64,000 bases of DNA from Deltaproteobacteria bacterium (lineage in GTDB: Bacteria > CG2-30-53-67), in NCBI GenBank assembly GCA_013151235.1, contig JAADIO010000022.1, positions 4,256-68,255 on the forward strand. The letters run 5' to 3'. Under the pieces are notes generated by a model. The model was not told where the DNA came from and made no database searches. It saw only the letters and a program-made list of their open reading frames with translations. Numbering within the stretch: position 1 is the stretch's first letter; each line of letters begins with the position of its first letter. This document shows, piece after piece, positions 15,652 through 59,393 of this stretch. The position numbers were made by a program, and so were the translations under genes.

Positions 15652-15722
15652 GGGATCACTCCTTTCCGACGCCGCAGGAAGACCTCCGGCAGTCTCCCCA
15701 CCGGAGAGTGCTGATGAGCGGA

Positions 15723-16133: not shown

Positions 16134-16311
16134 GAATTTGACTCCTTTCAATCATCTATTGATCGTAGATTATTATCACAAATCGGGGGGAAGATACAAG
16201 ATAGAAAACGGGAAAATAGAAATCAGGCCCCGGAATCGGAAAACAAAAACCGGAACTGCCGCCGACAAAGAGAGGGGAACTGAACCGTCACCGGGAACCT
16301 TCCGGCAGGAT

Positions 16312-16770: not shown

Positions 16771-16856
16771 TTCCCAGGCGCCTCCTCAGAAAATGTATCA
16801 ATTGCTTGGAAGAATAACGGCCCCGCCTCTCCCGGCAGGGAATGGATCACATTGTG

Positions 16857-17973: not shown

Positions 17974-18043
17974 TAGACGATCCGATCCCTGAAATATTCT
18001 ATTTCATGTCAGGGAGATGGAGTTTTGAGTTGCGTCGAAAGGA

Positions 18044-18808: not shown

Positions 18809-18854
18809 TTTCCCTCCTCACGGATTGTCGGATTCGTATGGAAAAGGCTTTGCA

Positions 18855-30623: not shown

Positions 30624-31013
30624 ATGTACGATTCGGGTAAGGTTCTCTTGGGAATTATTATCTTTCTGGTCATGGTAACTTTTCCGCTTTACTACAACAT
30701 CGGAAGAGCCGATATCAAACCGGAGCCCGACCTGAACACCCTCGCCATACGGAAAATGGCGGTCAAACAGTGCATCGAAAAAACCCCGTACATGCGATCC
30801 AACCATATGAAGCTTCTGAAAGGTTGGATGGATGGCTTTCTCAAGGACGGAACCATGGAGTACAAGGCCGGTAACGGCAAAACATACGAAACCTCTTTCG
30901 ACACCTGCATGGAATGTCATGCAAGCCGGAAAAAGTTCTGTGACACCTGCCACAGCTATGCCGGGGTACAGCCATACTGCTGGAAATGCCATTCCCTGGA
31001 TGACGAGGGGTGA
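30624..31013 (+). CDS. small membrane-anchored tri-heme c-type cytochrome
   Basis: 129 aa; N-terminal TM helix; three CXXCH motifs (CMECH, CDTCH, CWKCH) packed within ~30 residues at the C-terminus. Confidence 0.75.
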   Translation: MYDSGKVLLGIIIFLVMVTFPLYYNIGRADIKPEPDLNTLAIRKMAVKQCIEKTPYMRSNHMKLLKGWMDGFLKDGTMEYKAGNGKTYETSFDTCMECHASRKKFCDTCHSYAGVQPYCWKCHSLDDEG

Positions 31014-43228: not shown

Positions 43229-43229
43229 C

Positions 43230-44633
43230 CTAACCACTCCGGCCGCGGCGGGGAGAAGGGGAAACCTTACGCCGGATCGCCGCAATCCGTTTTTTGACCC
43301 GGGCCGGTGCCGTTCCACCGGGAATGTCCCGGGAGGCAACGGACGCCTTCGGCGTAAGCACACCATAGATGTCCTTTTCAATGGAGGGGTGAAAGCTCTG
43401 CATCTCCTGCAGGGAGAGGGATTCAAGCCCCCGACCCGCGTCCATACAGAACCGGACGATTTTCCCCGTCACTTCATGAGCCGTGCGAAAGGGAAGTCCC
43501 TTCCGGACCAGGTAATCCGCCAGATCGGTGGCCGTGGAAAACCCCTTCGTTGCACACGACTCCATCCTCTCCCGCCGGATGGTCAGACTCTTGATCATCC
43601 CGGCGAATACCGTGAGCGACCCAACGACGGTATCGACGGTATCAAAGAGGGGCTCCTTGTCCTCCTGGAGATCCCGGTTATACGTGAGGGGCAGCCCCTT
43701 CAGGTTCGTCAGCATCGCCATGAGGTGGCCGTAAACCCGGCCCGTCTTTCCCCGGACCAGTTCCGGCACATCGGGATTCTTTTTCTGAGGCATGATACTG
43801 CTCCCCGTGGCGTAGTCGTCCCCCATCTCGACGAAAGAGAAGGGCTCACTCGACCAGAGGATCAGCTCTTCGCTGAAACGGGAAAGATGCATCATGATCA
43901 GGGAGGCCGCTGTGAAGAATTCGACCAGGTAATCCCGGTCGCTCACGGCATCCATACTGTTCTCCGTAACCCCCTCGAAACCGAGCTGATCGGCCACAAA
44001 CTCCCGGTCGATCGGGAAAGGGGTCCCGGCAAGGGCCCCGGATCCAAGGGGGAGGCGGTTGACCCGCTTCGCGCATTCGGTCAGGCGCTCCCGATCCCGG
44101 AGGAACATCTCACAGTAGGCCAGAAGATGATGGGCGAACAACACCGGCTGGGCGATCTGAAGATGAGTAAAACCCGGCATGATCACCCCCTCCCCGGCCT
44201 TCGCCTTCTCTATGAGAATGAGGATCAGACCCCGGATGAGATCATCAATCCCCCCGATGGCATCCCGGAGAAAGAGGCGGGTATCGAGGGCCACCTGGTC
44301 GTTCCGGCTCCGGGCCGTGTGGAGCCTGCCGCCCACGTCACCGATCTTCTCAATGAGCCGCCCTTCGATATTCATGTGGATATCTTCCAGCTCAGGACGG
44401 AAGGGAAAGGTCCCCCCCTCAATCTCCCGGGCGATGGAACGAAGCCCCTGCAGGATCTTCTTTGCATCCGCGGAGGGGATAATCTTCTGCCGGGCCAGCA
44501 TCCGGCAGTGGGCCATGCTCCCTTCAATATCGTAGGGGGCCAGCCGTTTGTCGTAATGGACCGACGCGGTAAAGGCCTCCACGCCCTTATCCATTGCTTT
44601 CGTAAAGCGCCCGCCCCAAGGTTTCTTCTTCAA
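43230..44633 (-). CDS. argH: argininosuccinate lyase
   Basis: [17 protein letters not shown] fumarase/ASL signatures. Confidence 0.95.
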
Positions 44634-44923: not shown

Positions 44924-45628
44924 TCACTCCGCAACGGGATTGTTCGATGCCGCTCCCCGGGCGATAATACGGAACGTGACAACCGGCACCTGAGGAAGGT
45001 CCGTACGGATCAGGGCAAGGCCGGAAAAATCCGGTTGTTCGGCCTTGCCGACGAACGCCACCGACACCTTGATCTCACCACCGGCAGGCACGGCAGGATC
45101 GTCGACAGAGATCCTGAGGCGGGTATCGAAGGGTTTTACGACCTCAAGATGGATCGGCTTCGCCGAGTGATTCGACAGAGTCACCGACCGGGAGACCACC
45201 TTCCCCGGAGGAACCAGGCCGAAGTTACAAATCAGGGGATTCACGGTAACGGGTTCCAGGACATTCCCTTTGATCCGGAGCAGGAATCGCCCGTCCGGCG
45301 CGTTGGTCAGGAGGGAAATCCCCTTCGACTGGGGACCCCTTTTGTGCCGGGAGTTAAAAACCACGAGAAGTTCGCCGCTCTTCCCCGGGGCGATCTCACG
45401 CGGGTAGTCACGGGCAACGGTGCAACCGCAGGTGGTTTCCACCTTGTAAATCTCCAGCGTCTCGTCCCCCCGATTTTCCAGTTCAAAGCGGTGTACCACC
45501 TGGGTCCCCTGGAGAATCGTTCCAAAGTCAAAGACCGGCGAAGAGACCGCCACTCGCGGCCCCACGGCCGCTGAAACCGCAGCACAGAGCATCATCATAA
45601 GAACAACGGCCAGGATCTTTCGTATCAT
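44924..45628 (-). CDS. DUF1573-family secreted protein
   Basis: Start MIRKILAVVLMMMLCAAVSA (ATG 45628); ETTCGCTVA motif typical of DUF1573 Ig-like domains. Confidence 0.6.
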   Translation of the reverse strand: MIRKILAVVLMMMLCAAVSAAVGPRVAVSSPVFDFGTILQGTQVVHRFELENRGDETLEIYKVETTCGCTVARDYPREIAPGKSGELLVVFNSRHKRGPQSKGISLLTNAPDGRFLLRIKGNVLEPVTVNPLICNFGLVPPGKVVSRSVTLSNHSAKPIHLEVVKPFDTRLRISVDDPAVPAGGEIKVSVAFVGKAEQPDFSGLALIRTDLPQVPVVTFRIIARGAASNNPVAE

Positions 45629-45732
45629 GGCGCCGCCCTCTCTTCCAGGAGGGATTTGCACCGCGTGTGGCTCATGCTTTTGGGCTTGACTTTTGACTTT
45701 GTTTCTCTCCGTGGTTAATGCTGTGGTTGCCG

Positions 45733-46560
45733 TTACTCCGCGTCCTTTGCACACCGAAAGCCGACGTCGTTGTGGTGATAACCTTCGATGGCAATCGCCT
45801 GCCGTCGGGTAATCCGCAACAGCGCGGCATTTGAACTCCATGCCCCCCCCCGGATCACGTGGATCCCCTTGCCGTACAGTCTGTTCGACATCTCATTGCC
45901 GGGGTACGGGGTATAGACACCCGCTGTCCATTCGGAGACGTTCCCGGCCATGTTGCGAACCCCGTAGGGCGAACTATCGGTCGCATAGAAGTCCCCGGGA
46001 ACGGTGCGGGTGTAGATGGGGTTGTGGAAGAGGGTCGCGGAGTAGCATGCCCAATAGCGGCCCCCGTGGTAGGGCGGCTCATTACCCCACGGATAGCGGC
46101 GCCCGTCGGTGCCCCGTGCGGCCTTTTCCCATTCCGCCTCCGTGGGGAGACGCTTTCCCGCCCACTTCGCATAGGCATCCGCATCCTTCCAGGTCACCTC
46201 GACCACCGGCAGTTCGTCCTTGCCCATCACCGGGTTCTTCAGTTCCACCGGCAGGGTCCGTCCGGTCGCCTCGGCAAATTTGCGGTACTCGCCCACGGTC
46301 ACCTCATGAGTATCAATATAGTAGGCGGGCAGATCCACGAGATGAGCGGGCGCCTCATCGTCGTACGAGTCGTCCGCTCCCATCCGGAAGGAGCCGGCGG
46401 GGATATAGGTCATTCCCGGGATCACCGCCGGCGGCTTTGCAGACTGCTGCTCGGCATGCTGCGCCACCTCTTTCGCCGCATGCTGCTCCGGCTTCCCGCT
46501 ACAGCCGGAACCGAAGGAGATCAAAACAAGAAGGAGAAAAACCATTCTGTAAGGGGACAT
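45733..46560 (-). CDS. FGE-sulfatase (SUMF1/formylglycine-generating-enzyme-like) domain lipoprotein
   Basis: GSFRMG...RGGAWSSNAALLRITRRQAIAIEGYHHNDVGFRCAKD; ATG 46560 with GGAG RBS. Alternative GTG at 46602 overlaps the upstream stop as GTGA. Confidence 0.8.
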   Translation of the reverse strand: MSPYRMVFLLLVLISFGSGCSGKPEQHAAKEVAQHAEQQSAKPPAVIPGMTYIPAGSFRMGADDSYDDEAPAHLVDLPAYYIDTHEVTVGEYRKFAEATGRTLPVELKNPVMGKDELPVVEVTWKDADAYAKWAGKRLPTEAEWEKAARGTDGRRYPWGNEPPYHGGRYWACYSATLFHNPIYTRTVPGDFYATDSSPYGVRNMAGNVSEWTAGVYTPYPGNEMSNRLYGKGIHVIRGGAWSSNAALLRITRRQAIAIEGYHHNDVGFRCAKDAE

Positions 46561-46598
46561 AATAAAATCTCCAATTCTTATGGATATCGACCGGCAGA

Positions 46599-48812
46599 TC
46601 ACCGATCGGCATGAGCCCAGGCAACGGCACGGTCGTAGTCCTTACCGATCGGCGTGCCGCGATAGTTGATGTTACGAGCGAGCAACGGAACGCCGGCAGG
46701 CGTGGTGCGATGGCACGCGCTGCACTCCACGGGTCCGGTGGAACCATCCGGGTTGTACTGGACCGCCTGCTGCGGCGACACCTCGTCATTGCCCAGGGGA
46801 TTGACCGGGAAAAGGCCGTGGGCCGCCTGATGGCACCCCTGGCAGGTGATCCCGGCATGGGCACTCGAAAAACGCATCAGACTGTATTTCTGTGGTTGAT
46901 CGACGGGGAAAAAACCACCCCCCATCGATTCCACAAAGGGCGGAGCGTGACAGTCGGCGCAATGCGGCAGACCCGCTGAAAACCAGTAATCCTTGCTGCC
47001 GGAGACATCACCATAAGAGACAGGAACGGCACCGTCCACTGCCGTTGCCGACACCGTGCCGTCTTTCTTCCGGTACCCGAGCGGTGCCCCTTTGCCCCGC
47101 TCCCAGGTAGCTTCGTTCCTGTCCCGCCCCTTCACTACCTTCGGGTCCAGGTAGCGGTCGATAAGCTGCTGCACGTCACCGCCGGTGAGTACCGCAGCAA
47201 TTTCCGGGATCGTTTTATTCCGCAATCCCGCTCCCGCGCCCGTCGCCGTATCGGTCAGCCGGTCCGCCCGGTAAAGGGCAATGGAAAGTCGGTTGTGACA
47301 GTGCGTGCAATAGAGCCCCCGGTCCTTGCCCTCCTCATCCCAGACGGTATCAAGGTACCATTTCCCGATCGCGTTCAGGTGACTCTTTGTGTGCAGTTCG
47401 GCCGCCCGGTACGGGTTTGAGTGGACGTCGCGGCCGGTGTAACTGCCTGCGGCATCCCGGTTGTCCCCCTTCGCGTACCGGTTGGCGCCATCCCGGGTAA
47501 CGGGGAAACGATCGAACCGACCCGCATCCGAGTGGGCCGGGTGGCACATCTGACAGTTCCCGGGCCGCCCCCCGGCGTCCGGAGCGGGCATCACCTCGGC
47601 ATGTTTTCTGTGTATCGCCTCGGTCAGCGACAACCGCGCCCGCACCTTCGAGTCGGCAATATTGGTCATGGGGCTGTCGTTCATCCGGAGACGACCGATG
47701 ACGTTATCCGCGTGGCACGAGGGACAGAAAACCGTCTGGCGACCCAGGCGGTTGAGGCTCGAGTTGTTGCTGTAGTTCCAGGTAAAATGGGTCTGCTCGT
47801 CCTTGTCGTGAAGTTCGAGGATGGAAATGGCCGCCGCCTGGGTGGTGGAGAAATGCTCGGTAGAATCACTGTAGGTCTTCAGCCAATAGCTGTATTCCGC
47901 TCGGTACTTCTTCGCCCGGTCGCCGTTCGCACGCTTCGTGCCATGGCACCGATCACAGGAGGGAGCATCGACGGGGATTACCCCCATGGCGGTCATGACA
48001 CTGCCGTCACGATCCATCACGAAACGGCCGGCTTTGTCCCGCAAGGTGATGATCACCCGCTGATAGGGCTGGTACTCCACCTCCTTGCCCGAACGGAGGC
48101 TTTTGTTTCCGCGCGAGTAGTCGAGGTAGGGAGTAAGCGGTAACCCTACGGCATCCCACAGATCAGGCGGAGCGAGGGGGATCGGGATATCGGTCGTGTC
48201 GTTTTCTCCGTCAACGAAAAAGCGTACGCCGCTCTCGCCGGTATAGTGAAGACTACGATCACGCTTCAGAATCGGCGGCCAATCAGTAATGCGCCGGCCG
48301 GTGATCCCATGGTCGTCATCGGGAGGGTGGGTATTCCAGACGTAAATGCGATCCTTCGCCGTCGCCCCGGCCGGTCGGACGCCATCGGGCCGACCGTAGG
48401 TATAATAGGGACGGATGAACTCGACCGGTGGCTGGTCGAAGGGATCGAGCCGCTCCCCGTTCCGGTCAACATCATACTTGACCCCCCAGTAGGAAAGCTT
48501 GTTGCCGGAGGAATAGGAATTTCCCTGAAAACCGAACTCGGGCTGCACACCGTCCGTCGGGGTCATCAGTTTCGGCGGCGTCCCGTCCGATCCTTCCGTA
48601 CGGATTACCTGTACCTGCACGCTGTTAAAGGGAGGCAGGGCGGCCGTATATTTGAAATCGAAGCTGGTGATGTGCATCCCCAATTCCGAATGGATCAGGA
48701 TTACATAACGGTGCTGGGGCTCATGGAACTCTTCCAGGGCAGGTGCCCTAACCGGAAACAACGCAACCATGCCCAGGAACAGCAGGACAATCCTCGTGCA
48801 ATAAGCGCTCAC
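46599..48812 (-). CDS. 7-heme c-type cytochrome with N-terminal non-heme domain (paralog of the 1662-aa cytochrome)
   Basis: GTG start overlapping the PPIase stop (GTGA); signal peptide; CXXCH motifs CDRCH, CPSCH, CQMCH, CTHCH, CADCH, CQGCH, CSACH. Confidence 0.85.
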   Translation of the reverse strand: MSAYCTRIVLLFLGMVALFPVRAPALEEFHEPQHRYVILIHSELGMHITSFDFKYTAALPPFNSVQVQVIRTEGSDGTPPKLMTPTDGVQPEFGFQGNSYSSGNKLSYWGVKYDVDRNGERLDPFDQPPVEFIRPYYTYGRPDGVRPAGATAKDRIYVWNTHPPDDDHGITGRRITDWPPILKRDRSLHYTGESGVRFFVDGENDTTDIPIPLAPPDLWDAVGLPLTPYLDYSRGNKSLRSGKEVEYQPYQRVIITLRDKAGRFVMDRDGSVMTAMGVIPVDAPSCDRCHGTKRANGDRAKKYRAEYSYWLKTYSDSTEHFSTTQAAAISILELHDKDEQTHFTWNYSNNSSLNRLGRQTVFCPSCHADNVIGRLRMNDSPMTNIADSKVRARLSLTEAIHRKHAEVMPAPDAGGRPGNCQMCHPAHSDAGRFDRFPVTRDGANRYAKGDNRDAAGSYTGRDVHSNPYRAAELHTKSHLNAIGKWYLDTVWDEEGKDRGLYCTHCHNRLSIALYRADRLTDTATGAGAGLRNKTIPEIAAVLTGGDVQQLIDRYLDPKVVKGRDRNEATWERGKGAPLGYRKKDGTVSATAVDGAVPVSYGDVSGSKDYWFSAGLPHCADCHAPPFVESMGGGFFPVDQPQKYSLMRFSSAHAGITCQGCHQAAHGLFPVNPLGNDEVSPQQAVQYNPDGSTGPVECSACHRTTPAGVPLLARNINYRGTPIGKDYDRAVAWAHADR

Positions 48813-50248
48813 TTTTGACCTCCGGAGGATGCCGGCGGCAACGCCTTACCCCGTTTTGCCGTCGGCAGGGTCACCCGGCCGAACCAGTCCGGATCGATAA
48901 CGACCTTGTGCTTTTTGCGCAGCTCCGCCAGATAGGGTCCCATATTCTTCTTGAAGAAGAATTCATTGTAGTGTTCGCGCTTGTCGCTGTTATTGATCCG
49001 TTTCAGGGAAAGCTGCTCCGGTGCGACTCGCTCCAGGGTGCGAATGAGATGCCACCCGAGCGGCGATTTCACCGGCCGACTGACCTCTTTTACCTTCAAG
49101 GCAAAGGCCGCCTTTTCCAACTCGGGAAGGATCTTCCCCCTCCCTTTTGTGATCCATCCCAAGACCCCCGAAGTCCGCCCGGCGGACGGATCGATGGAGC
49201 GCTCCTGGGCGAGCTTGTAGAAAGGATCGTAGTCCTCGGTAGTCTCCTTGAGGATCTGCTTGCGCAACGCTTTCGCCTCGGCCCTGGTCTTCACCACGAT
49301 CTGCTGCAGACGCCGCCGTTCGGGAATGGTAAAGTCCTTCGGATGTTCCTTGTAGTATTCGGCAAAAGCCTTATCCGTGGGGATATACTTTTTACGCAAT
49401 TTCGTCACGAGCTGCGCTGCGGTGAGGTCGCGCACAAAGTCGTCGTGGCGGTGCCGGTAGGTGGGGTCCCGATCGAGGCCGAGGCCGCGTGCCTTGCGTG
49501 CCTTGAGAATCTCAACTCCCATGGCAAGAAGTTCGGCACGCCGTTCCCCCGTACTTTTCTTGTTCTTAAGGCGAGGCCGTGCCCATCGCCAGGTCACCGG
49601 CTCGCCTGCAACCGTGGCGATTACCTGCCCCGGCTGTCGCTTATCGTCATCGTTCAGTGCAATATCGGCATCCTTCACCTCCACCCGGAGCGTCTTTCCC
49701 AAACTCTCCGCAAGTTCCTTACGTACCTCGTCGAAACGGCGGGCGGCAAGCTTGTTACGCATAACCCGGCGCATCTCGGCATCAAGTTTGTTGGCACCAT
49801 GTTTGGTGTTCTTCTCCTTCTTCCACGCAGCCTCCACCTCTGCATCGGTAATCTTGCTGCGTCGGTTGTAGAAGTCACGGGTATAGAGGTCGGCGAGGGT
49901 TTGAATCTCCCACGCCTTCAGGCGGGTACGGAATTTTTCGCTCTGATCCAGCCCTTCCGACTTTGCCTCAAGATAGAGAAGACGCTGGTTGATGAGATTC
50001 GTAAGAAAAGCCTGTTTCACCCGCCGTCCCTGACCGGAGGAGTTAAGTTGATCCGCGTACGCCTGCAGCGGGGTGGAGTCAATCGCCTGGATCACCTCCC
50101 AGTCGTGGATGGCAAGGCCGTCCACGGTGGCGACGACGCCGGATTCCCCTGCGGGTTTCCCCTTCGCCGCATCGGCTGCAAGGGTCGTGCCGGCAAGGAG
50201 TACCAGAAAGGAGAAAAGAAGAGAAACGACGACCGAAAGCTTCTTCAT
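48809..50248 (-). CDS. parvulin-type peptidyl-prolyl cis-trans isomerase (SurA/PpiD-like periplasmic chaperone)
   Basis: 479 aa, signal peptide, SurA-N-like region and parvulin domain (GVLGWITKG...GWHLI); strong GGAGG RBS. Confidence 0.75.
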   Translation of the reverse strand: MKKLSVVVSLLFSFLVLLAGTTLAADAAKGKPAGESGVVATVDGLAIHDWEVIQAIDSTPLQAYADQLNSSGQGRRVKQAFLTNLINQRLLYLEAKSEGLDQSEKFRTRLKAWEIQTLADLYTRDFYNRRSKITDAEVEAAWKKEKNTKHGANKLDAEMRRVMRNKLAARRFDEVRKELAESLGKTLRVEVKDADIALNDDDKRQPGQVIATVAGEPVTWRWARPRLKNKKSTGERRAELLAMGVEILKARKARGLGLDRDPTYRHRHDDFVRDLTAAQLVTKLRKKYIPTDKAFAEYYKEHPKDFTIPERRRLQQIVVKTRAEAKALRKQILKETTEDYDPFYKLAQERSIDPSAGRTSGVLGWITKGRGKILPELEKAAFALKVKEVSRPVKSPLGWHLIRTLERVAPEQLSLKRINNSDKREHYNEFFFKKNMGPYLAELRKKHKVVIDPDWFGRVTLPTAKRGKALPPASSGGQK

Positions 50249-50580
50249 AAATAACCTCCAACATCCGCTTTAATGAGTGTTTCGCAAAGTACCCGAAAAA
50301 CCGTATACTGTCAAGGGGTTAAGACCCGCATTTTTCGAACCTGCAAATCCCCCCTACCCCCCCTTTCCGGCGCCTCCCCCTTTTTAAAGGGGGACTGAGG
50401 GGGATTCCGCGCTTGTCTTTGATTTTCCTTGCGCCCTTGGCGTCCTTTGCGAGAAGGCGCTTTCCGCTTTTAGCCTTTGACCGGGGCGGTTTGTAAACCG
50501 CCCCCTACATCGATTTGTTTTTCTTTGCGGCCTCTGCGTCTCTGCGGTGAGATCACCTCTTGATGGTTTCATAATAGACC

Positions 50581-50612
50581 AAAGGGGGTGGACCGTAAGG
50601 CCCACCCCCTTT
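50581..50612 (-). terminator. GC-rich hairpin downstream of the giant cytochrome gene (candidate terminator)
   Basis: AAAGGGGGTGG-loop-CCACCCCCTTT, perfect 11-bp stem; moderate U content follows on the minus strand. Confidence 0.45.
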
Positions 50613-50650
50613 GTGCTGTGGCGGATTGGGACCCGCCGGGTTCATAATGT

Positions 50651-53600
50651 TTACGGGTTCGACAAGGCACCCACATGGCAATAACCGCACGAGTTTGTCA
50701 TCCCCGCAGGCGTGGTATCTCCCGCAGGATCGGGGTCACCGTTTGCAGCCAGATCGGTCCTCATGGCATCTACGAACTCCGTGGTCACCACGTCGAAGGT
50801 ATGGGAGTGGATATCCCCCTCACGGTACTGGTTCGAACCATCCGTGAGGGAGTTCTCCCACCGCGCCGTTTTGGCCGTCTTCGGCATATGGCAGTTGGTG
50901 CATCGCCCCATACCGCTACCCACCGGATCATAGGTCATGTAACTCATAGTACTGTTCACCCACTTCCCTATGTGACGCATCACCTCGGAGGCGATCGTGG
51001 CCTCATCGGTCGGGGTCGTGGTCCCGGCGGCAAGATCATCCGCCATCGACTGGGTAACAAACTGGAAGTTCGCAGGATCGGCGCCTTCCAGGCTTTCGTC
51101 CGGAGTCGTTTCACCCGCACCCGGTGCTCTGAGGGAACTGTTGTGACAACCCAGGCAGAGAGCGTTGTTATCACCGTTGGCAGTGAGCTGATGCTCTTCG
51201 ACCACACCGGCGGCACTGGGACCGCCATGAGCGTCATGACAGTCGATACAGGTCACCATCTCCATGTCGTTCTTGTACATCGTCGTACGCACCACGTCGT
51301 AGTACTGCTGGTGGTGGCCCTTCGAATGGTTGAAGGAACCGGTCACCTGCGTTACATTCCCCGCCGCAGTAGAAGTCACGAAGGGGTTGGCCGACTCATA
51401 ACCGATATCCTGCCAGCTATGGTGATCGGTGGTATAGTCGATCGCCTCCCAGTATCCGCCGACGGTCCCGAAGTCGGGAGCCAGGCCGGTGCCGTCTGCG
51501 GTGCCGTAGTACTCGGCGGGACTCATCCCCGGCTTGAAGACCGTAATCGCCGGATCGACAGTGAGATCTCCCACGGAAGCGAAGCCCGCATGAGCGCCGC
51601 TTGAATCAAGGACGCTGTGACCGTGACCGCGCTGGTGACAGGTGCCGCAAACCATCGTCAGACGTCCCGGAGTCAGAAGATCCGGCTGGACGATATTGTA
51701 GCCCTCGCCGCCGTTTGCCACATGTTCGGAACCCGGACCGTGACAGCGCTCGCAGCCGATGTTGCCGGCGTAGACGTTGGACGCGACCTGGTCAATGTAC
51801 TGGGTGATGAAATTGCCGTTGCTATCCTTGGTAATGCCGACACCGCCGTGGCAGCCGGCGCAGTCAACACCAAAGGACTCGGTGGGTGCACCCGTAGGCG
51901 TCGTACCAAGGCCTGCGGGTGTAAAAACGTCGGCACCCATGGTGGTCGGTGTGGACCACTTACCGGAGAACTCACCGTTCTCCCCGAAGGCAGCGGGGTC
52001 GGATCCGGACTCGTTCCACTGGAACGGAGCCGGATAATAATAGGAGGAACCGCCGGCCTGCACGTGCGCCGTTCCCGGCTCTCCATTGGCGCCGACAAGA
52101 AGCATGTAGCGCTGCTTGGCAACTCCCTCACCGCCATAGGTGAAAGCAACGTTGTACGTAGCCGAAAGGTTCCCGCTGCATGTGGCGTTATCCGCCATCT
52201 GCATTGTGGGCGTACCCCCCGAGTAACCCAGCTTGGCGTAATGGGTGTTGCCCTGGGCGGAGAAGCTAATGCAGTCGCCATTGGCGAATGCCGCCAAGCC
52301 ACCATCAGCGTTGGCTGCCCAACTCGTCATATCCTGCAGACTGTTGGCCATCGTATAGCCGGGGTTGGACGGATCCGGAACGCGGAATCCGAGGAAGTGA
52401 AGGGTGTGCTTCAGCGAACCCTTCGCATGGCACCCAAGACAGGTAGACGAACCGACGTAGGTCGCCGAGGTGGACGGTGTCATCGAAATCGTGATGTCAC
52501 CGAAGGCCGGCATGTTGACTACGTGGCCGTTGACCACCTTGAGAGTTTCACGCCGAGCCCACGGCAGGTGTGCCGTATCGCTCCCCGCAGGGATGACGCA
52601 GGCATAGTAATCACCGTCGGCCAGCGGCACACCATTAAAATTGTAGCTGCCATCAGCTGCGGTGGTCGCAAAACCGCCGTTGGAATTGGACCCGCCGATC
52701 ACTGCGTTGGCGACATCCTCAATCGGCTGAATGGAACTGCTCGCCTCCACATCGGCAGCAGAAACAAAGACCACGGAGGCATTGGCAACCTTCGCCGTGG
52801 AGGTATCAACGACCGTACCGTGAAGTGCAAGACCGGTCATATTATTGTGATTGGCGCAATCGTCGTTGGCCGGGGCTTCCGGAATCATCGTGCGCCCGTA
52901 GCCGAGCGGCAGGCCCAACCCGTTGTCGGTTGCGTTTCGTTCGACCGTCGGCAGGGTACTCCTCGCGTCCCGCACGGTATGCATGTAGATCACCGCCAGG
53001 TCATAGTTGGTGCCGATCGTTACGCCGTTCACCTTCTTCTTCGCCGCGACTGTCGGTACACCGCCGTTGTTGGTCACGTGACATGCGCCACAGGTAACGG
53101 GACCGTGCGAACCGTTGGCATTATACTGGAGCGCAGCGTTGCGGGTCGTCGGATCGTTCAGCGGCGACACCGGGTAGAGCCCGTGGGTCGACTCGTGACA
53201 CGACTGACAGGCGATCCTCTCGTGACCCTTGGAGTGGCGCATGAGGGCGTACTTGCCGGGCTCGGCCCAGGGCGGATTCATCCCCTGGGACTCGACAAAT
53301 GGATACGCGTGACAGTCGGCGCAGTGCGGCTCACCCGCAGAGGCCCAGAAGTCACTCCCGTCGGTCACCACACCGTAGGGGACACCGGGGACAACTTCGC
53401 CGCCCATCCCCTTGTACTGGTAGTGGTCATTGGTATCATCAATCACCGTCTCACCGCCGAGTTCGGAGGCAATATCCACTGCTTCCTGCTCGGTCAGCGG
53501 CGTATCGACACCGCCGAACATCAGGCCTTCGGCCGCAGCGTTCTGCGTGGCAACCAGGAGGTCTTCAGCCGATTCGCCGGCAATCGCAGGTCCCAGTCCA

Positions 53601-55639
53601 CCGATACCGCCGGCACCGTGGCAGAGATCGCATTCCTTGTCCTCGTAGACGTTGGTGCCGCCTGTCGGAGTGACGGTCCGCAGTTTCGGGTCCATGTACT
53701 TGGAGGTCAGGTCCGACACGGAGACACCCAGTGCGGCGGCAATCGACGGAATCCCCGAATCACGCAGGGTTGAGGTCGCGGGACGCGCCGTCGAACCCGG
53801 AATGGTGGGATCGCCGATCCCGGTGTCCGTTTTCCACAGTTCGGAGGCGAGCCGGTTGTGACAGTTCGTGCAGTAGATTCCCTTGCCGGTGCCCGCATCG
53901 ACGTTATCCAGGTACCATTGGCCGATGGCGTTCAGGTGGCTGGGCGTATCGTCCGGCTCGTTGTTACGGTCCATGTTGCCATGAACGTCCCGATTGGTGA
54001 AACAGCCCACGGAGTCACGGATGTCCGTCTGGGCGACGGAGGTCAGCGTCCCCTGGTAGCTGAGCGGGAAGTTGGTCATGTCGCCGTTCTGGGTATGGGC
54101 CGGATGGCAGGCCTGGCAGTTGCCGGCGCGGCCGTTGTTATCCGGCAGCGTACGCTCAACAGCGCCGGAATGACGCATATGGATGGCATAGGTCAGCGCC
54201 TGGTTGCCGACATTGTCCCGGCTGGCAGGGTAACGCTCCGCCTCGGAGGCTGCCGGCACGGACGGAGACTGGTTGTCGCAGAAGCGGTCACCGGCCTGGA
54301 AACGGCCTACGATGTTATCTGCGTGACATGACTGACACATCACTGATTGCCGACCGAGACGGTTGTTCCCGACACCACTCGGGTCGTAGTTGCCAAGGAA
54401 GTTGGTGCCGAAATCGGAATCGTGGATACCGAGCATCCCCACCGCCGCCGACTTCAGCCGGGCATAATATCCCGTGGCCCCCTGGGCGAGCCAGTAATTA
54501 TACTCCTGCAAGGCGTGACCACCCGGATCACCCGCGGGAATGGTTCCGCTGGCGGGATCATAGCCATGACACTTTTCACATGCCGGGGAGTCGATTGGGG
54601 CGGTGCCGAAAAACTGCACCGGTGTTCCATCGTGCTGCAGCATCTGGTTGCCGGTGGAAGCGTTGTACATGTAGACCCACTGCTCCTGAAAGGGCCTGAA
54701 ATCGCTCTCGGCGATGTCGGTAATGTTTTTGCCCACCACCAGGGAGTCGTTGAACGGGGTCAGCGCAATGCCGACAACATCCCAAACATCGGCGGTCGTC
54801 AGAACCACGGGCACATCGGAGAGACGCATGCCATCGAGGCCGAGACCGGCGCCCGCGGCATCAATGATCTTGGTATAGGTATAAACGACCGTCCCCTCAT
54901 TGCCCACATAGGTGAGGCCTGGACGGCCGAGACCTAAGCCGTTAAGTGCATCGGCCGACTTGTCCGCAAGCTTGTTGGCCATCGCCCCGAAGGTGGGGCC
55001 GTGGTCCTGGGGAATATTGAGGGAGGCACCACCGACAGAGATACGATCGGTCGCCAGGGCACCCGCCGCCTTGCCGCCTTCGAGGAAGGGGAGAACGGGC
55101 GGATCACCCGGACCGGCACCGCCGGAAACGCCGATGCCGGAGCCGGCATCCTTCCCGGTAAAGGGATTGTAAGTATAGAGAGAGTCGAACTCAACATTCG
55201 ACAACATGTCCTCAGGGTCGGTGGTGGTCCCGTTGACGTTCGAGTCGGGACTACCGTCGGCCCATTTCTCGGTGCCGTTCCCGGCATCATAGGGGACTGT
55301 CCAGTAGGCCAGCTTTGCTCCCTCCGAGAAGGAATTGTCCTTGAACTCATAGCCGAGCTTAATGTTGTCGGCGGGTGTGAGTTGCTTCGGGTGTGCACCG
55401 GTTTTCACCGCCTGCGCCTGGATCGAGTTGAAGGGCGGCAGGACGCAGCAATAGGAAAAATCAAAACCGGTACAGTGCATCCCCAACTCATAGTTGGTAA
55501 AAATGAGATAGTTCTTCTTGGGTGAGTTGAGATGGCGGCCCCGGCTGCGCCTGCCGCGGGCAACGGCATTCGTCGCCAGCGAGGCGACAAAAAGTACGCC
55601 CAGGACCAGCATCAGAATCTGAATGGCTGTCTTACGCAT
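50651..55639 (-). CDS. giant (~1662 aa) ~16-heme c-type cytochrome with N-terminal non-heme domain and an internal Cna-B/carboxypeptidase-regulatory-like domain
   Basis: Start at MRKTAIQILMLVLGVLFVASLATNAVA (ATG 55639, AAAGGAG RBS); 16 CXXCH motifs counted by eye; TAADGSYNFNGVPLADGDYYACVIP prealbumin-like domain. The ORF-track start at 55828 would overlap the upstream gene. Confidence 0.85.
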   Translation of the reverse strand: MRKTAIQILMLVLGVLFVASLATNAVARGRRSRGRHLNSPKKNYLIFTNYELGMHCTGFDFSYCCVLPPFNSIQAQAVKTGAHPKQLTPADNIKLGYEFKDNSFSEGAKLAYWTVPYDAGNGTEKWADGSPDSNVNGTTTDPEDMLSNVEFDSLYTYNPFTGKDAGSGIGVSGGAGPGDPPVLPFLEGGKAAGALATDRISVGGASLNIPQDHGPTFGAMANKLADKSADALNGLGLGRPGLTYVGNEGTVVYTYTKIIDAAGAGLGLDGMRLSDVPVVLTTADVWDVVGIALTPFNDSLVVGKNITDIAESDFRPFQEQWVYMYNASTGNQMLQHDGTPVQFFGTAPIDSPACEKCHGYDPASGTIPAGDPGGHALQEYNYWLAQGATGYYARLKSAAVGMLGIHDSDFGTNFLGNYDPSGVGNNRLGRQSVMCQSCHADNIVGRFQAGDRFCDNQSPSVPAASEAERYPASRDNVGNQALTYAIHMRHSGAVERTLPDNNGRAGNCQACHPAHTQNGDMTNFPLSYQGTLTSVAQTDIRDSVGCFTNRDVHGNMDRNNEPDDTPSHLNAIGQWYLDNVDAGTGKGIYCTNCHNRLASELWKTDTGIGDPTIPGSTARPATSTLRDSGIPSIAAALGVSVSDLTSKYMDPKLRTVTPTGGTNVYEDKECDLCHGAGGIGGLGPAIAGESAEDLLVATQNAAAEGLMFGGVDTPLTEQEAVDIASELGGETVIDDTNDHYQYKGMGGEVVPGVPYGVVTDGSDFWASAGEPHCADCHAYPFVESQGMNPPWAEPGKYALMRHSKGHERIACQSCHESTHGLYPVSPLNDPTTRNAALQYNANGSHGPVTCGACHVTNNGGVPTVAAKKKVNGVTIGTNYDLAVIYMHTVRDARSTLPTVERNATDNGLGLPLGYGRTMIPEAPANDDCANHNNMTGLALHGTVVDTSTAKVANASVVFVSAADVEASSSIQPIEDVANAVIGGSNSNGGFATTAADGSYNFNGVPLADGDYYACVIPAGSDTAHLPWARRETLKVVNGHVVNMPAFGDITISMTPSTSATYVGSSTCLGCHAKGSLKHTLHFLGFRVPDPSNPGYTMANSLQDMTSWAANADGGLAAFANGDCISFSAQGNTHYAKLGYSGGTPTMQMADNATCSGNLSATYNVAFTYGGEGVAKQRYMLLVGANGEPGTAHVQAGGSSYYYPAPFQWNESGSDPAAFGENGEFSGKWSTPTTMGADVFTPAGLGTTPTGAPTESFGVDCAGCHGGVGITKDSNGNFITQYIDQVASNVYAGNIGCERCHGPGSEHVANGGEGYNIVQPDLLTPGRLTMVCGTCHQRGHGHSVLDSSGAHAGFASVGDLTVDPAITVFKPGMSPAEYYGTADGTGLAPDFGTVGGYWEAIDYTTDHHSWQDIGYESANPFVTSTAAGNVTQVTGSFNHSKGHHQQYYDVVRTTMYKNDMEMVTCIDCHDAHGGPSAAGVVEEHQLTANGDNNALCLGCHNSSLRAPGAGETTPDESLEGADPANFQFVTQSMADDLAAGTTTPTDEATIASEVMRHIGKWVNSTMSYMTYDPVGSGMGRCTNCHMPKTAKTARWENSLTDGSNQYREGDIHSHTFDVVTTEFVDAMRTDLAANGDPDPAGDTTPAGMTNSCGYCHVGALSNP

Positions 55640-55655
55640 GGAAGCTCCTTTCATT

Positions 55656-56588
55656 TTACACATGGTGCCCTCCTTTCCCACCTGCACGACGACGAAGCCC
55701 CAACAGGCCGAAAAGCCCGGTCGCCAGGAAGACGAGGGACGAAGGCTCGGGAACCATTGCCGTGGTGGTAAGGGCGTTAAGATTGTCGCTCGACAACAGA
55801 CCCAGGTCCGCGGCCGTGATGGCGACATTCGAGGTGTTGTTCAGAAAAAGGTCCGCGGCCGATCCGTAGCCGGAGGCGGAAGCCAGCGAAAACAGAACAT
55901 CTCCCGTAACAGCATCAATGGCCAGCGCGTCTAAGTCCTGTCCCTGCTCAATACCAAGCGACGCGGCAGTCCGGAAGATGTTACCAAGACTGTTGAGATA
56001 GATGTTCCCATCACCGGCAAGGGAGAAGTAGACATCCCCGTCCTGACCCGGAACATAAGGTGCGGCACCGAGATCCACGGCATCGAGATCATCATTGTTC
56101 TGTCCGTAAGCGCTATCGTTCAGACCGTAGTCCTCACCATAAGTATCCGCAAAGTTGACCCCCGCAAGCTGGCCCGGGTTGGCGTCGAAAAGCGTCCCCA
56201 TCTGCCGACTGGTCGAGGCCTTCCATGCCACGTCCGTGCCCGAAGCGCCCTGGCTGTTCGCATCCACCGAGAAATAGACGTCGTAGATGCTTGCGGGATC
56301 AGCACTGTCAAACCCGAAGGAGAGGGCGTCGATCTCGTCGGCCGCGGACAATCCGAGATCGGCCGGCGTCAACGCCACGGTGTTGGTGCCGTCGAGCGGC
56401 GTATCGAAGAGATGGGCGCCGTCCGGACTGGTGCTGTATACGTCATTAGGCATATTCGTTCCGGGAGCAACGCCGATCCCGTCATTGAGCACCGAGAAGG
56501 TGTCGGCCCGGCCGATCGCCGGAAGAGCGAAGATACAAATCATTGAGACAACCGCCAGAAGGCGGAGCCTTAACCCATAACATTTCAT
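55656..56588 (-). CDS. PEP-CTERM sorting-signal protein 1 (Asp-rich secreted protein)
   Basis: C-terminus VPEPSSLVFLATGLFGLLGLRRR (PEP motif, TM, basic tail); signal peptide from ATG 56588; 16-bp gap to the cytochrome start. Confidence 0.75.
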   Translation of the reverse strand: MKCYGLRLRLLAVVSMICIFALPAIGRADTFSVLNDGIGVAPGTNMPNDVYSTSPDGAHLFDTPLDGTNTVALTPADLGLSAADEIDALSFGFDSADPASIYDVYFSVDANSQGASGTDVAWKASTSRQMGTLFDANPGQLAGVNFADTYGEDYGLNDSAYGQNNDDLDAVDLGAAPYVPGQDGDVYFSLAGDGNIYLNSLGNIFRTAASLGIEQGQDLDALAIDAVTGDVLFSLASASGYGSAADLFLNNTSNVAITAADLGLLSSDNLNALTTTAMVPEPSSLVFLATGLFGLLGLRRRAGGKGGHHV

Positions 56589-56875
56589 AATGTTTCCCCC
56601 TTGTATGATGTCATTCCCCTGCAATAATCCCGCCGGGAGCGAATGCCTCCGGCTTCCCCCTTTCCGGCAGGCAGCAGATTTGTGAACCTGCCGGAAACAT
56701 AACGTAAAATTGAACCATTGTAAAAGTACGATTTATGTTGGAACCATTTTGTCGGTCATTCTTCACCCCCCTCATATTTAGATGATCACGATATTTGACT
56801 TCAACTTCCGCAGCAAATCTTATGAATCACCCCCTTTCCCGATATAAGATCATTTTGCCCATTTGCCGTAAGCCG

Positions 56876-57697
56876 TCACACCCCGCGACGACGAAAGAAG
56901 ACCGCAAGTCCTGCCAGACCGCTTCCCAACAGCACCAGCGAGCCGGGCTCGGGAACCGTCGCAAGCTGGAGTTCAAGAACCATCTGGTAAGAGAGAGTAT
57001 CGAACCCACTTCCCGGCATCCGATTGCCCGTGGCGACAAGACGCAGGCTCTGACCGTCAAAGGGACGGCCGTCCACCTTGTAGGCGAAGTTGTAACTGCC
57101 ATTGGTCGGAGAGGTCCACGGGGCGGTCCAGAGACGTAAGGGCATACTGTTATCCAGACCGGTGTTCTGCGGGATGAAGACGGCGTTATTCATCACCACG
57201 TGCATCTCGCCGTCACCGGTCACCGTGCCGCCCGGCTCGAAGAAACTATTCCACGGAATGGTATACTGGTTGGCGTCGCCGGTCTCAGTGGAGTGGTCGC
57301 GGAAGTCGACCGTCCCAAGCAGTGTTCCCGGGACCGTATCCGGCAGGAAGGTGTCCGCAGGAATCGTCACCGTCGTACCCCCTCCGCTGATTACAATATC
57401 CATCGTGCCGCCCGGAATCGCCCATTCCAGGGAATGCTGGAAGTTAAAGCTACTCCCCGTGTCTCCACCGTTATATGGATCACTTGCGATTCCATCCACA
57501 CTCCCCGGAACGATGTTGAAGTGGTAGGTACCGTCGGTCCAGGCGACCGGCGTGGCATGGGCAGGGACAACCGCCAAGATGAAGAATAGCCCGAAGACAA
57601 CGGCGACCGCCGCTGTTTTTAAGTGTTGAATGATGATGGTGTGCCGCCACACCGGAACCTCCGCCGACAGGCGGAGTTTCCCCTTGCAAAGATTCAT
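56876..57697 (-). CDS. PEP-CTERM sorting-signal protein 2
   Basis: C-terminus VPEPGSLVLLGSGLAGLAVFFRRRGV; alternative GTG start near 57655 behind GGAGG. Confidence 0.75.
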   Translation of the reverse strand: MNLCKGKLRLSAEVPVWRHTIIIQHLKTAAVAVVFGLFFILAVVPAHATPVAWTDGTYHFNIVPGSVDGIASDPYNGGDTGSSFNFQHSLEWAIPGGTMDIVISGGGTTVTIPADTFLPDTVPGTLLGTVDFRDHSTETGDANQYTIPWNSFFEPGGTVTGDGEMHVVMNNAVFIPQNTGLDNSMPLRLWTAPWTSPTNGSYNFAYKVDGRPFDGQSLRLVATGNRMPGSGFDTLSYQMVLELQLATVPEPGSLVLLGSGLAGLAVFFRRRGV

Positions 57698-57994
57698 AAA
57701 CTTCCCCCCTATGATGTCATTCCCCTATAAAACGGTCTTGAACAATCGCGCCCGAGGCATCCGCCCCCGGCCCCCCTTTTTCTGCGGACAGGAATTTGCA
57801 ACCCTTTCAGATGACAATCATCAACGGCTCCCAATTCCCGTCATTAGATCGACTGGGTACCTCCTTTCTTCAATACGAACTAAAACGTCTCCATTTTCAT
57901 GTTCCTCAGGCTGCAGCACGAATCACTCCCCCCCGGTTTGATACTGCACGCCACGATCGGCCGGAACTTTATGCGGCCATATACAGCAGCATAT

Positions 57995-58010
57995 TGCAGG
58001 TTACATGCCA
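57995..58010 (-). promoter_or_regulatory. sigma-54 (-24/-12) promoter for PEP-CTERM gene 2
   Basis: Minus-strand TGGCATGTAACCTGCA versus consensus TGGCACG-N4-TTGCW. Confidence 0.6.
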
Positions 58011-58112
58011 ATTCTACCCAATGAGCGGCCAGAACAAATAAAAAGATAACATGATGAAAAGAAGGGACTTATTTCGGAGCAAGACAGCCCGTCAACCGGT
58101 TATGCAGGTATT

Positions 58113-58166
58113 CGATAGCGTGAATATATGAAATAATTTTCCTTTTTTGTGAAAAGATTTTCCCAC
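58113..58166. promoter_or_regulatory. conserved upstream element A with inverted repeat GTGAAAAGATTTTCCCAC (candidate enhancer/UAS)
   Basis: ~85% identical to 59500-59553; centred ~150 bp upstream of the sigma-54 -24 element. Confidence 0.55.
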
Positions 58167-58208
58167 TATTTGTGCGGATGCACGATTGTGCGGGCTCCAC
58201 AACGGATG

Positions 58209-58247
58209 CAGACAAAACAAAGGGGGCCGGCCCGAAGGCCCGCCCCC
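58209..58247 (-). terminator. Rho-independent terminator after PEP-CTERM gene 3
   Basis: Minus strand GGGGGCGGGCC-TTCG-GGCCGGCCCCC followed by TTTGTTTTGTCT. Confidence 0.75.
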
Positions 58248-58286
58248 TGATTCTCTCAGATCCTCAATACGCAAGCGACCGGAGCA

Positions 58287-59165
58287 TTATGCACCGGCGG
58301 CCTTTACGGAACGATGATGACGCCGGTGGAGACCGGCGAGAACCGGCAGGAAGGATGCGATCAGGAAAAAAGAGGAGGGCTCGGGTACGGCAGCGGCGCT
58401 GACCCGGATATTGTCCACGATCAGGCCGGTGTCGAAGCTCCCGTCCCCCTCATCTCCGACAAAAAATTCCAGGGTGTAGTCGCCGGCGCCCAGGATAGAA
58501 CTGGTGACCGTCTGGAACCCGCCGAGATAGGTCCCGTCGTAAAAGCTGCTCGCCGGAAGTGTGGGATCGCTGGTCGTCCAGGAAATGCCGCTGAAGTCAC
58601 CGGCGTATAGCGGTGCAAAGGAACCATCGTTGTAGCCGTCGTCCAAGGAGCACTGAACCAGGGAGATCGGAGCGCCCGCGGCAGGCAGGAGGCGGATCTC
58701 GGCGATATCGGCAAGGCCGGCGGTACTCCATCCATCGAACTCACTGGTAGCAATAGTCCAGTCGAGAGCCAGAGTGGAGGGGGCCGTAAGCGTAAAAGAC
58801 TGGCTCAAAGTGGCGATGTCGAACTCGTCGGCGCCGCTTCCGTCCCGGTCAAACCCCGAATCCACACCCGGCGGCATCCCGTTCACAAAGCTGTCGGGAC
58901 TGGTCGATAGGAGCGCAAACCAACTGCCGTCGGTTGCCAAATAGCCGGTCTGACCACTAATATTTTTATCCGGGCTATGGTAGTCGGGGTTGATCCGCTG
59001 GACGTTGCCGGAAGCGGTCCAGCCGGACAGGTCGGTTTCAAAAGAAAGGTTGGTGAGCCCCGTAGCGAAGGCCGCCGCCGGGACGAACAGACAGAAAACT
59101 GCGATCACCGCCATCCAGCGGAGTACGACATTCCGAATCTTTAGTTTTATACTGTATAACTTCAT
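58287..59165 (-). CDS. PEP-CTERM sorting-signal protein 3
   Basis: C-terminus VPEPSSFFLIASFLPVLAGLHRRHHR; N-terminal signal peptide. Confidence 0.75.
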   Translation of the reverse strand: MKLYSIKLKIRNVVLRWMAVIAVFCLFVPAAAFATGLTNLSFETDLSGWTASGNVQRINPDYHSPDKNISGQTGYLATDGSWFALLSTSPDSFVNGMPPGVDSGFDRDGSGADEFDIATLSQSFTLTAPSTLALDWTIATSEFDGWSTAGLADIAEIRLLPAAGAPISLVQCSLDDGYNDGSFAPLYAGDFSGISWTTSDPTLPASSFYDGTYLGGFQTVTSSILGAGDYTLEFFVGDEGDGSFDTGLIVDNIRVSAAAVPEPSSFFLIASFLPVLAGLHRRHHRSVKAAGA

Positions 59166-59377: not shown

Positions 59378-59393
59378 AGCAGGTTCCGTGCCA
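59378..59393 (-). promoter_or_regulatory. sigma-54 (-24/-12) promoter for PEP-CTERM gene 3
   Basis: Minus-strand TGGCACGGAACCTGCT. Confidence 0.6.

Follow-up and report, generated by a model that had tools for sequence, protein, structure and literature searches.

A stretch of 64,000 nucleotides (nt) of contig JAADIO010000022.1 (assembly GCA_013151235.1, positions 4,256 to 68,255 of the forward strand), called the window here, carries eight co-oriented minus-strand genes between positions 44924 and 59165. They encode three proteins with PEP-CTERM sorting tails (PEP1, PEP2 and PEP3), a 16-haem cytochrome and a smaller heptahaem cytochrome, a parvulin-type peptidyl-prolyl isomerase (PPIase), a lipoprotein with the fold of formylglycine-generating enzyme (FGE), and a DUF1573 protein. 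On balance, sequence comparison points to an extracytoplasmic electron-transfer assembly, for which the PPIase would probably act as dedicated foldase and in which PEP1 would be the physical partner of the 16-haem cytochrome. Placement of this assembly in the outer layer or matrix of the cell, exchanging electrons with extracellular partners, is a more tentative suggestion. Gene fusions between PEP1 and the big cytochrome in related lineages, and the wide conservation of a cytochrome-PPIase gene pair, are among the evidence.

A physical link between PEP-CTERM proteins and a giant cytochrome had been suggested in the initial annotation of this DNA, and it is now backed by in-frame fusions of the two. 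In all four lineages with a visible upstream region (the window and three sisters), the gene immediately before the big cytochrome is that of PEP1, and in three sister lineages, L001/L002, L088 and P0259, the two proteins are encoded as one. Compared with the window, L001/L002 has lost 21 nt that include the PEP1 stop codon but not the Shine-Dalgarno sequence GAAAGGAG or the ATG, and the same fusion was seen in two assemblies from separate samples. L088 has a single open reading frame (ORF) of 2019 residues with 16 CXXCH haem-binding motifs, its parts being listed in Table 1. The P0259 protein, of 1905 residues and again with 16 CXXCH motifs, has the same triple architecture; because it is only 66% identical to L088 and 72% to the big cytochrome of the window, it is counted as a further lineage. 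Adjacency in four lineages together with fusion in three amounts to evidence of the Rosetta-stone type, from which PEP1 and the big cytochrome are probably functional, stoichiometric partners. The topology of the fused protein is feasible: the PEP-CTERM helix would run from outside to inside, a short basic loop would lie in the cytoplasm, and the next hydrophobic segment would lead back out and end at an AxA-like signal peptidase site, so that exosortase and signal peptidase would yield two mature proteins.

PEP1 itself is rare: 5.8 billion clustered sequences and 1.84 billion representatives yielded no more than a handful of close homologues. It contains four copies of a repeat, LGL..D[LI][DN]A[LV]. 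A signal peptide, a VPEP motif, a transmembrane helix and a basic cluster are found in all three PEP proteins. Against a PF07589 cut-off of 20.7 bits, PEP1 and PEP2 pass, as they do for TIGR02595; PEP3 falls short at 15.7 bits, although its VPEPSS-hydrophobic-RRHHR tail is readable, and its L001 orthologue (E = 5e-108) has a canonical PEP-CTERM tail. The passenger domains of the three are mutually unrelated and the sorting tail is the sole part in common. No PEP-CTERM tails other than these three occur in the whole 64 kb, and among the loci examined none was found near the cytochrome family outside the clade of the window.

The big cytochrome is a composite of two families. Besides its 16 CXXCH motifs it has no CX3CH, CX4CH or CXXCK, and in Pfam it matches Cytochrome_C7 (49.9 bits) and, marginally, MtrC/MtrF domain II/IV (31.2 bits against a cut-off of 30). 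Its C-terminal part belongs to a family that is normally free-standing, with a length of about 700-790 residues, a consensus beginning with a lipobox, a paired-CXXCH motif and weak similarity to MtrC and DmsE; the top match has 57% identity over 95% coverage, and some relatives carry SLH domains or collagen repeats. A predicted model of this C-terminal module (predicted local distance difference test, pLDDT, 84; predicted template modelling score, pTM, 0.88) gave the transthyretin-like domain as sole match in Foldseek. The window, L088 and P0259 have the heptahaem part joined to the eight-haem module, which L001 and L089 do not; a query with the module found no match in an earlier set of 87 loci, and L088 and P0259, which carry it, came later. 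At one further locus (L086, positions 1-20000), a free-standing homologue of the module lies between two sets resembling alternative complex III (ACIII), with cytochrome c7-like, molybdopterin subunit, NrfD, ActD and cytochrome c genes. There are thus hints that this second family may partner with ACIII-type quinol oxidoreductases.

The small cytochrome and the N-terminal 913 residues of the big one are paralogues within a single family of about 780 residues, as shown by alignments and by E-values from 1e-150 down to 0. In the small cytochrome there are seven CXXCH motifs and again no CX3CH, CX4CH or CXXCK, the Cytochrome_C7 score is 37 bits, and the predicted model reaches a pLDDT of 80.7 and a pTM of 0.85; N-terminal signal peptides are readable in both cytochromes. 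The family is marked by an N-terminal non-haem domain of about 250 residues, predicted to be a beta-sandwich and bearing the motif INYELGMHCTGFDFxYCCVLPPYNS, by seven CXXCH motifs at fixed register, and by ten further invariant histidines, which make bis-His ligation possible for every haem. A CH dipeptide outside CXXCH is missing in 86 of 87 members, and the family therefore appears to have no atypical haem site. Matches to the family number 380 in a protein search and occur in 467 species genomes, including Nitrospinota, Nitrospirota, Methylomirabilis, Sedimenticola, Thiodiazotropha, Endoriftia, Sulfuricaulis, Gallionellaceae, Sideroxydans, Methylococcales and others. Nearly all are annotated as "hypothetical" and a few generically, for example as "cytochrome c3 family protein"; NCBIfam holds no model for the family, and Pfam gave no match for the N-terminal domain. 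Neither profile search nor fold search found relatives in the PDB, the fold result being an absence of evidence and no proof of a new fold, as fold searches deal poorly with haem-free cytochrome models.

Four nearly invariant non-haem cysteines, present in 92-95% of members (Cys48, Cys56, Cys57 and Cys457 in the numbering of the small cytochrome of the window), set the two paralogues apart. All four are replaced (Ile, Thr, Ala, Ser) in the small cytochrome of the window clade; the big paralogue retains the three of the N-terminal motif, and the fourth is readable in its sequence. At other loci with two copies (L021, L034, L040, L047, L049 and L073), it is the small copy that fits the canonical N-terminal motif and the big copy that does not, so that every duplicated locus pairs a copy bearing the canonical cysteine motif with one that lacks it. 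A heterodimer made up of an "active" and a "degenerate" subunit would be in keeping with this.

The PPIase has a Rotamase_2 domain (73 bits) and a weak SurA_N match, and its tie to the cytochrome is widely conserved. A survey of gene neighbourhoods covered the best 80 of the 467 loci, and adjacency, counted over 84 loci, was found in 75, most exceptions being on truncated contigs; it spans Nitrospinota, Gammaproteobacteria, Gallionellaceae, Methylomirabilis and methanotrophs. Two layouts recur. In one, the cytochrome is followed by the PPIase and, at 31 loci, by a TlpA-like thioredoxin; in the other, a larger paralogue of 1000-1250 residues is followed by the PPIase and then by the cytochrome, as in the window, in L001 and in the six loci just named. 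Small or dihaem c-type cytochromes, Ccm genes, sigma-54 activators and histidine kinases are further recurrent neighbours. In one Nitrospinota genome the unit consists of a sigma-54 regulator, the cytochrome and the PPIase alone, amid housekeeping genes, and sigma-54 activators adjoin the pair in several other phyla. The TlpA-like thioredoxin, cytochrome, Ccm and sigma-54 neighbours together point to a redox protein that would need special maturation. Assignment of the PPIase to the EpsD family of exosortase and exopolysaccharide loci (TIGR02925) was rejected, with a score of 58.7 bits against a cut-off of 108.9 and with orthologues that accompany the cytochrome at loci devoid of PEP-CTERM neighbours. 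Secreted ankyrin-repeat proteins of about 330 residues were also noted within a few kb of the pair at ten loci (L018, L028, L031, L039, L051, L052, L063, L072, L076 and L083), in Sedimenticola-like genomes and often next to a NapC/NirT cytochrome.

Around the window, this pair has acquired further members. The order big cytochrome, PPIase, small cytochrome, FGE-like lipoprotein is kept in five sister lineages (small cytochrome identities 88, 80, 77, 71 and 66%), with the qualification that the two nearest lie on short contigs in which the stretch from PPIase to FGE-like gene is all that is visible; conservation in relatives, which had been put forward as a check on the initial annotation, thus bears out this part of the gene order. 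Orthologues of the FGE-like protein were found in L001, L005, L006, L007, L088 and L089. In the four compared at their termini (the window, L001, L088 and L089), all have a lipobox and none has any cysteine in the C-terminal region (RGGAWSSNAALLR in the window), the place of the copper-binding cysteine pair in human FGE. A catalytic formylglycine-generating enzyme was rejected for this reason in spite of the fold, and none of the NCBIfam equivalog cut-offs was passed (score/cut-off: GldK 107.7/350, EgtB 111.5/360, SenA 106.7/420, PvdO 47.7/500). It is concluded that the protein would be a structural or accessory FGE-fold lipoprotein, non-catalytic in function. Beyond it, genes vary by lineage, with PrmA in L001 and a sigma-54 activator in L089. 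The nearest relatives of the window genes form a small clade of metagenome-assembled genomes of Nitrospirota. The source is named "Deltaproteobacteria bacterium" at NCBI (GXP58_*; NOY52783.1, NOY52786.1), whereas its closest relatives, at 66-88% identity, are labelled Nitrospirota or Nitrospirae; the label may be outdated or wrong.

All eight genes of the initial annotation are present on the one strand, and its counts of about 16 and 7 haems, its 1662-residue length for the big cytochrome, and its parvulin, FGE-sulfatase and DUF1573 domains hold good (scores above and in Table 1). Starts were chosen by Shine-Dalgarno spacing and comparison with orthologues, which agree with ATG 55639 for the big cytochrome and ATG 46560 for the FGE-like protein; ATG 56588 and ATG 45628 are the likely starts of PEP1 and the DUF1573 protein. 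On this basis PEP1 and the big cytochrome are still 16 nt apart, and the GTGA overlap of PPIase and small cytochrome (4 nt) was also found in L001. For the second overlap proposed, that of the small cytochrome with the FGE-like gene, a gap of 38 nt is more likely. Other spacers are longer: 589 nt between PEP3 and PEP2, 287 nt between PEP2 and PEP1, 402 nt between big cytochrome and PPIase, and 104 nt between the FGE-like and DUF1573 genes. A 96-nt stretch containing the hairpin 3' of the big cytochrome has a minimum free energy of -44 kcal/mol (z = -5.6; 0 of 200 shuffles as stable), and the hairpin could be either a terminator or an element that stabilises the mRNA. Because of such hairpins and the long gaps between genes, at least four transcript units are inferred in place of an operon spanning the whole module: PEP3, which is probably its own transcript; PEP2; PEP1 with the big cytochrome; and the PPIase, small cytochrome and FGE-like genes, with or without the DUF1573 gene.

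Table 1. Features of the locus (window coordinates in nt) and of the fused protein of L088 (residue numbers)
Feature	Coordinates	Strand	Basis or remark
PEP3, acidic secreted protein, VPEPSS-TM-RRHHR tail (TM, transmembrane helix)	58287..59165	-	ORF; PF07589 below cut-off
Terminator-like hairpin and T tract	58224..58241	-	3' of PEP3
PEP2, PEP-CTERM protein	56876..57697	-	PF07589 28.3 bits
PEP1, acidic PEP-CTERM protein (isoelectric point, pI, 4.05)	55656..56588	-	PF07589 25.0 bits
Big cytochrome, N-terminal 913 residues, heptahaem family member, 8 CXXCH, motif ELGMHCTGFDFSYCC kept	52900..55639	-	Family alignment
Big cytochrome, C-terminal 749 residues (914-1662), transthyretin-like (CarboxypepD_reg) domain then eight-haem module	50651..52899	-	Second family
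G+C-rich 15-bp hairpin	50580..50613	-	Directly 3' of big cytochrome stop codon
Secreted parvulin PPIase, SurA_N-like N-terminal domain, pI 10	48809..50248	-	Pfam
Small heptahaem cytochrome, 737 residues	46599..48812	-	Start overlaps PPIase stop by 4 nt
FGE-sulfatase-fold lipoprotein	45733..46560	-	PF03781 193 bits
DUF1573/Ig-like secreted protein	44924..45628	-	PF07610 103.4 bits (cut-off 26.1)
L088, PEP1 part	residues 2-317		VPEP-TM-RRR retained
L088, second signal-peptide-like segment	after PEP1 part		
L088, heptahaem-family part	residues 326-1254		
L088, C-terminal eight-haem module	residues 1252-2017		

Housekeeping genes flank the cluster: those for ArgH, LysA and an fn3 protein lie to one side, those for N-carbamoylputrescine amidase, agmatine deiminase and a tetratricopeptide repeat protein to the other. 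The fn3-domain protein (42209-43426, minus strand, beyond ArgH) has a counterpart, likewise a few kb from the cluster, in L089 (8963-9284, minus strand; a relative at 66% identity), which may be coincidence. A TGGCAC-N5-CTGC site at 59379-59393 on the minus strand (TGGCACGGAACCTGC), about 214 nt upstream of the PEP3 start, differs by one mismatch from the sigma-54 -24/-12 consensus; as a promoter it was set aside and kept as a lead only, since the count of such patterns in the window is not above chance (49 found, 42 +/- 7 expected). An Rfam scan of the window gave no match. Elsewhere, at 30624-31013 on the plus strand, where the G+C content dips to 0.50, a 129-residue ORF stands isolated between purD and the ATP-synthase b-subunit genes. 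With its N-terminal membrane helix and its three CXXCH motifs (CMECH, CDTCH, CWKCH), it resembles a membrane-anchored trihaem cytochrome of DsrJ- or NrfH-like size and is the sole c-type cytochrome in the window besides the pair in the cluster.

These observations of gene content, homology, haem counts, gene order, fusions, hairpins and missing catalytic FGE residues may be drawn together in a scheme for the location, processing and assembly of the proteins and for the role and direction of electron transfer. The locus would be a lineage-specific elaboration of a widespread module consisting of a secreted heptahaem cytochrome of about 780 residues and a SurA-like parvulin chaperone. In the clade of the window this module would have been duplicated, giving big paralogue, PPIase and small paralogue, and would have gained the FGE-fold lipoprotein; the big paralogue would then have gained the eight-haem module with its transthyretin-like domain (in the window and two sister lineages) and an upstream PEP1 (in the four lineages with visible upstream). 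PEP1 and the 16-haem cytochrome could be made together, by translational coupling over the 16-nt spacer in the window and as one polypeptide in the sister lineages, and exported each by its own signal sequence. Exosortase would cut PEP1 at VPEP and hand it to the outer layer, signal peptidase would free the cytochrome, and a 1:1 pair would result in which the acidic PEP1 passenger domain holds the long haem chain in the outer layer or matrix. The PPIase would fold both large cytochromes, and the small paralogue, with its four cysteines lost, might form an accessory or anchoring pair with the FGE-like lipoprotein. That PEP1 and the big cytochrome thereby constitute an exosortase-dependent display of a 16-haem wire into the exopolysaccharide or outer layer, with electron exchange independent of a porin-cytochrome conduit, is a further reading of low probability.

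Several points weigh against an assembly of this kind. Among the cluster genes and scanned flanks of the window, itself part of a contig of 112.6 kb, there is no exosortase, and no porin, type II secretion or quinol-oxidising partner is visible; passage of a 1662-residue cytochrome across the outer membrane is left unexplained by this. PEP1 and the big cytochrome are separate genes in the window, and the fusions all lie within one narrow clade and may reflect few events. Associations with PEP-CTERM proteins and the FGE-like protein are limited to that clade and do not extend to the wider cytochrome-PPIase module, whose cytochrome is elsewhere often a plain periplasmic protein or lipoprotein: a lipobox is found in 51 of 118 family members (about 43%), the remainder having an ordinary signal peptide. 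Also, a NapC/NirT tetrahaem cytochrome adjoins the family at about 13 loci, which suits a periplasmic role as well as one at the surface.

The last of these points are the natural ground for a different explanation, namely a periplasmic redox enzyme or hub that would act on a soluble sulfur, nitrogen or metal substrate, with NapC/NirT-type or small c-type cytochromes as its electron link to the quinone pool. The PEP-CTERM genes would then be merely co-regulated biofilm proteins or would share a common route of export or processing. This explanation is the main rival, possible but less probable than the assembly. Along with the NapC/NirT neighbours and the ordinary signal peptide in more than half of the family, it gains from the four nearly invariant cysteines, which could form a catalytic or ligand site, from the free-standing relative of the C-terminal module between ACIII-like clusters, and from sulfur genes at single loci: Sat, AprBA and an SoeABC-like enzyme flank a Gallionellaceae locus, DsrE, TusA and rhodanese genes are near in Sedimenticola, and DsrE and rhodanese genes, with TusA also counted among these sulfur genes, are near in L001. 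However, sulfur families were not among the 25 commonest in 147 randomly sampled ORFs located within 3.5 kb of the module at 62 loci, and the sulfur link is anecdotal for lack of such enrichment. The cytochromes showed neither an atypical haem-binding motif nor an open-site signature, SLH domains occur in some relatives of the C-terminal module, and co-regulation alone hardly accounts for three independent in-frame fusions to a PEP-CTERM passenger.

Chance adjacency of a PEP-CTERM cluster and DUF1573 gene with an unrelated cytochrome operon, the fusions being read-through accidents or assembly errors, is quite improbable as a general account, and its merit differs from gene to gene. It is likely for the DUF1573 gene, which has no homologue in any related locus, so that its proposed membership of the system is given up and it is probably a mere neighbour. 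Some force also comes from PEP2 and PEP3, presented initially as parts of the module: both are kept in the nearest (L001) lineage only and in changed order, PEP2 (orthologues in L001, L003 and L007) lying in L001 between the big cytochrome and the PPIase, and that lineage has a fourth PEP-CTERM gene. Long gaps and hairpins between units, and the mutually unrelated passenger domains, are in keeping with it too. For PEP1, the PPIase and the FGE-like protein it is unlikely, and for PEP1 it is largely refuted by the fusions, which recur in two separate L001/L002 assemblies and two more lineages (66-72% identical to each other and to the window); the constant position of PEP1 upstream of the cytochrome and the confinement of PEP-CTERM tails to this cluster within 64 kb also speak against it. 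An electron-transfer assembly built on the cytochrome-PPIase module, with PEP1 as partner of its big cytochrome, is accordingly the reading preferred here for the conserved genes.

What appears new in the first place is a widespread and unstudied cytochrome family, in at least 467 species, that has its own chaperone and no name, family-level model or structure. Its carriers include sulfur-oxidising symbionts (Thiodiazotropha, Endoriftia), Sedimenticola, Gallionellaceae, Sideroxydans, Nitrospinota, Methylomirabilis and methanotrophs, and as cultured carriers such as Methylomarinovum caldicuralii exist, a role in lithotrophic electron flow is directly testable. The PEP1-cytochrome fusions are the first genetic link found between exosortase sorting and bacterial multihaem cytochromes. 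To our knowledge, the functions of exosortase cargo are mostly unknown, and the fusions offer a specific hypothesis on the placement of a very large cytochrome within a biofilm matrix; the tie of PEP1 to the cytochrome suggests that an electron wire may be mounted outside the cell in a novel manner. Two more features also appear new, namely the modular combination of two cytochrome families in one 16-haem protein and the conserved FGE-fold lipoprotein partner. If the display hypothesis is true, the locus would be a porin-free display system built on a cytochrome-PPIase module of hundreds of chemolithoautotroph species; if not, the locus still illustrates clearly how cytochromes grow by modules, two families and a sorted passenger being variously joined in sister lineages.

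The locus was not recognised as a named system in the initial annotation, and no named system matches it. In the open full-text literature, to which subscription journals may add prior work, no description was found of the cytochrome family, the PEP-CTERM-cytochrome fusion, the two-family 16-haem protein or the FGE-fold partner. Nor was a report found linking PEP-CTERM proteins to multihaem cytochromes in bacteria; what came up was Geobacter work on transcriptomics, regulation, genomics or cobalt resistance, a review of ANME archaea, and some biofilm papers on other matters. Known PEP-CTERM/exosortase systems are tied to exopolysaccharide loci with EpsH/XrtA and PrsK/PrsR; PEP1 and PEP2 resemble their substrates in passing both domain models, but no EpsH/XrtA or PrsK/PrsR was seen in the window. 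The FGE-like protein shares with PorK/GldK, PvdO and NirV-like proteins the FGE-sulfatase fold, a lipoprotein signal and the lack of a catalytic cysteine pair, but differs from PorK/GldK and PvdO in scores far under the equivalog cut-offs and in having no type IX secretion or pyoverdine genes nearby. Likeness to MtrCAB/OmcA consists in large lipoprotein or secreted multihaem cytochromes and the marginal MtrC/MtrF domain match; a conduit of the Mtr type was rejected, there being no MtrB-like barrel or porin and no MtrA-like decahaem protein among the eight genes and scanned flanks. The NCBIfam score for DmsE was 32 bits against a cut-off of 192, those for OmcA and MtrC were likewise far under their cut-offs, and there was no fold match to solved Mtr structures.

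Anaerobic methanotrophic archaea of the groups ANME-2a and ANME-2d have multihaem cytochromes with PGF- or PEF-CTERM archaeosortase signals that are thought to be extracellular (PMC5244752), and here too a C-terminal signal of the sortase family is genetically joined to a multihaem cytochrome. In the archaea, however, the signal is at the C-terminus of the cytochrome itself, whereas in the present locus PEP-CTERM ends a separate passenger that precedes the cytochrome, the system is the bacterial exosortase system, and the cytochrome retains its own signal peptide. Another comparison is with MccA/SirA, a large multihaem cytochrome with dedicated maturation genes, among them the PPIase MccB in Wolinella. 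The sir cluster of Shewanella encodes SirH, a thioredoxin of TlpA-like type (PMC6976685), which is a precedent for the dedicated one found with the present family. MccA/SirA differs in its atypical CX12-15CH haem site, for which a special haem lyase is needed, and the family described here has no such site; an MccA/SirA-like sulfite reductase, considered in view of the PPIase, thioredoxin and sulfur genes, was rejected on this ground and for want of a PDB match in sequence or fold and of sulfur enrichment in the ORF sample.

The closest precedent is the Uet cluster of Tenderiales and some Gallionella, which runs from the cytochrome UetA, the PPIase UetB and the porin UetC to the undecahaem UetJ and for which extracellular electron uptake has been proposed (10.1101/2022.05.06.490989; 10.1101/2023.01.26.525709). 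As in the present locus, a multihaem cytochrome gene is directly followed by that of a dedicated PPIase, and in chemolithoautotrophs. Adjacency is all that the locus has in common with uetABCDEFGHIJ: by Pfam, the cluster and scanned flanks are devoid of porin, NHL, cupredoxin, trihaem c7 and undecahaem genes, and the cytochromes, judged by description, appear to be of a different and much larger family with an N-terminal beta-sandwich. Clusters in which multihaem cytochromes are accompanied by dedicated maturation factors are nevertheless a known kind, represented by Uet, Mcc/Sir and Mtr.

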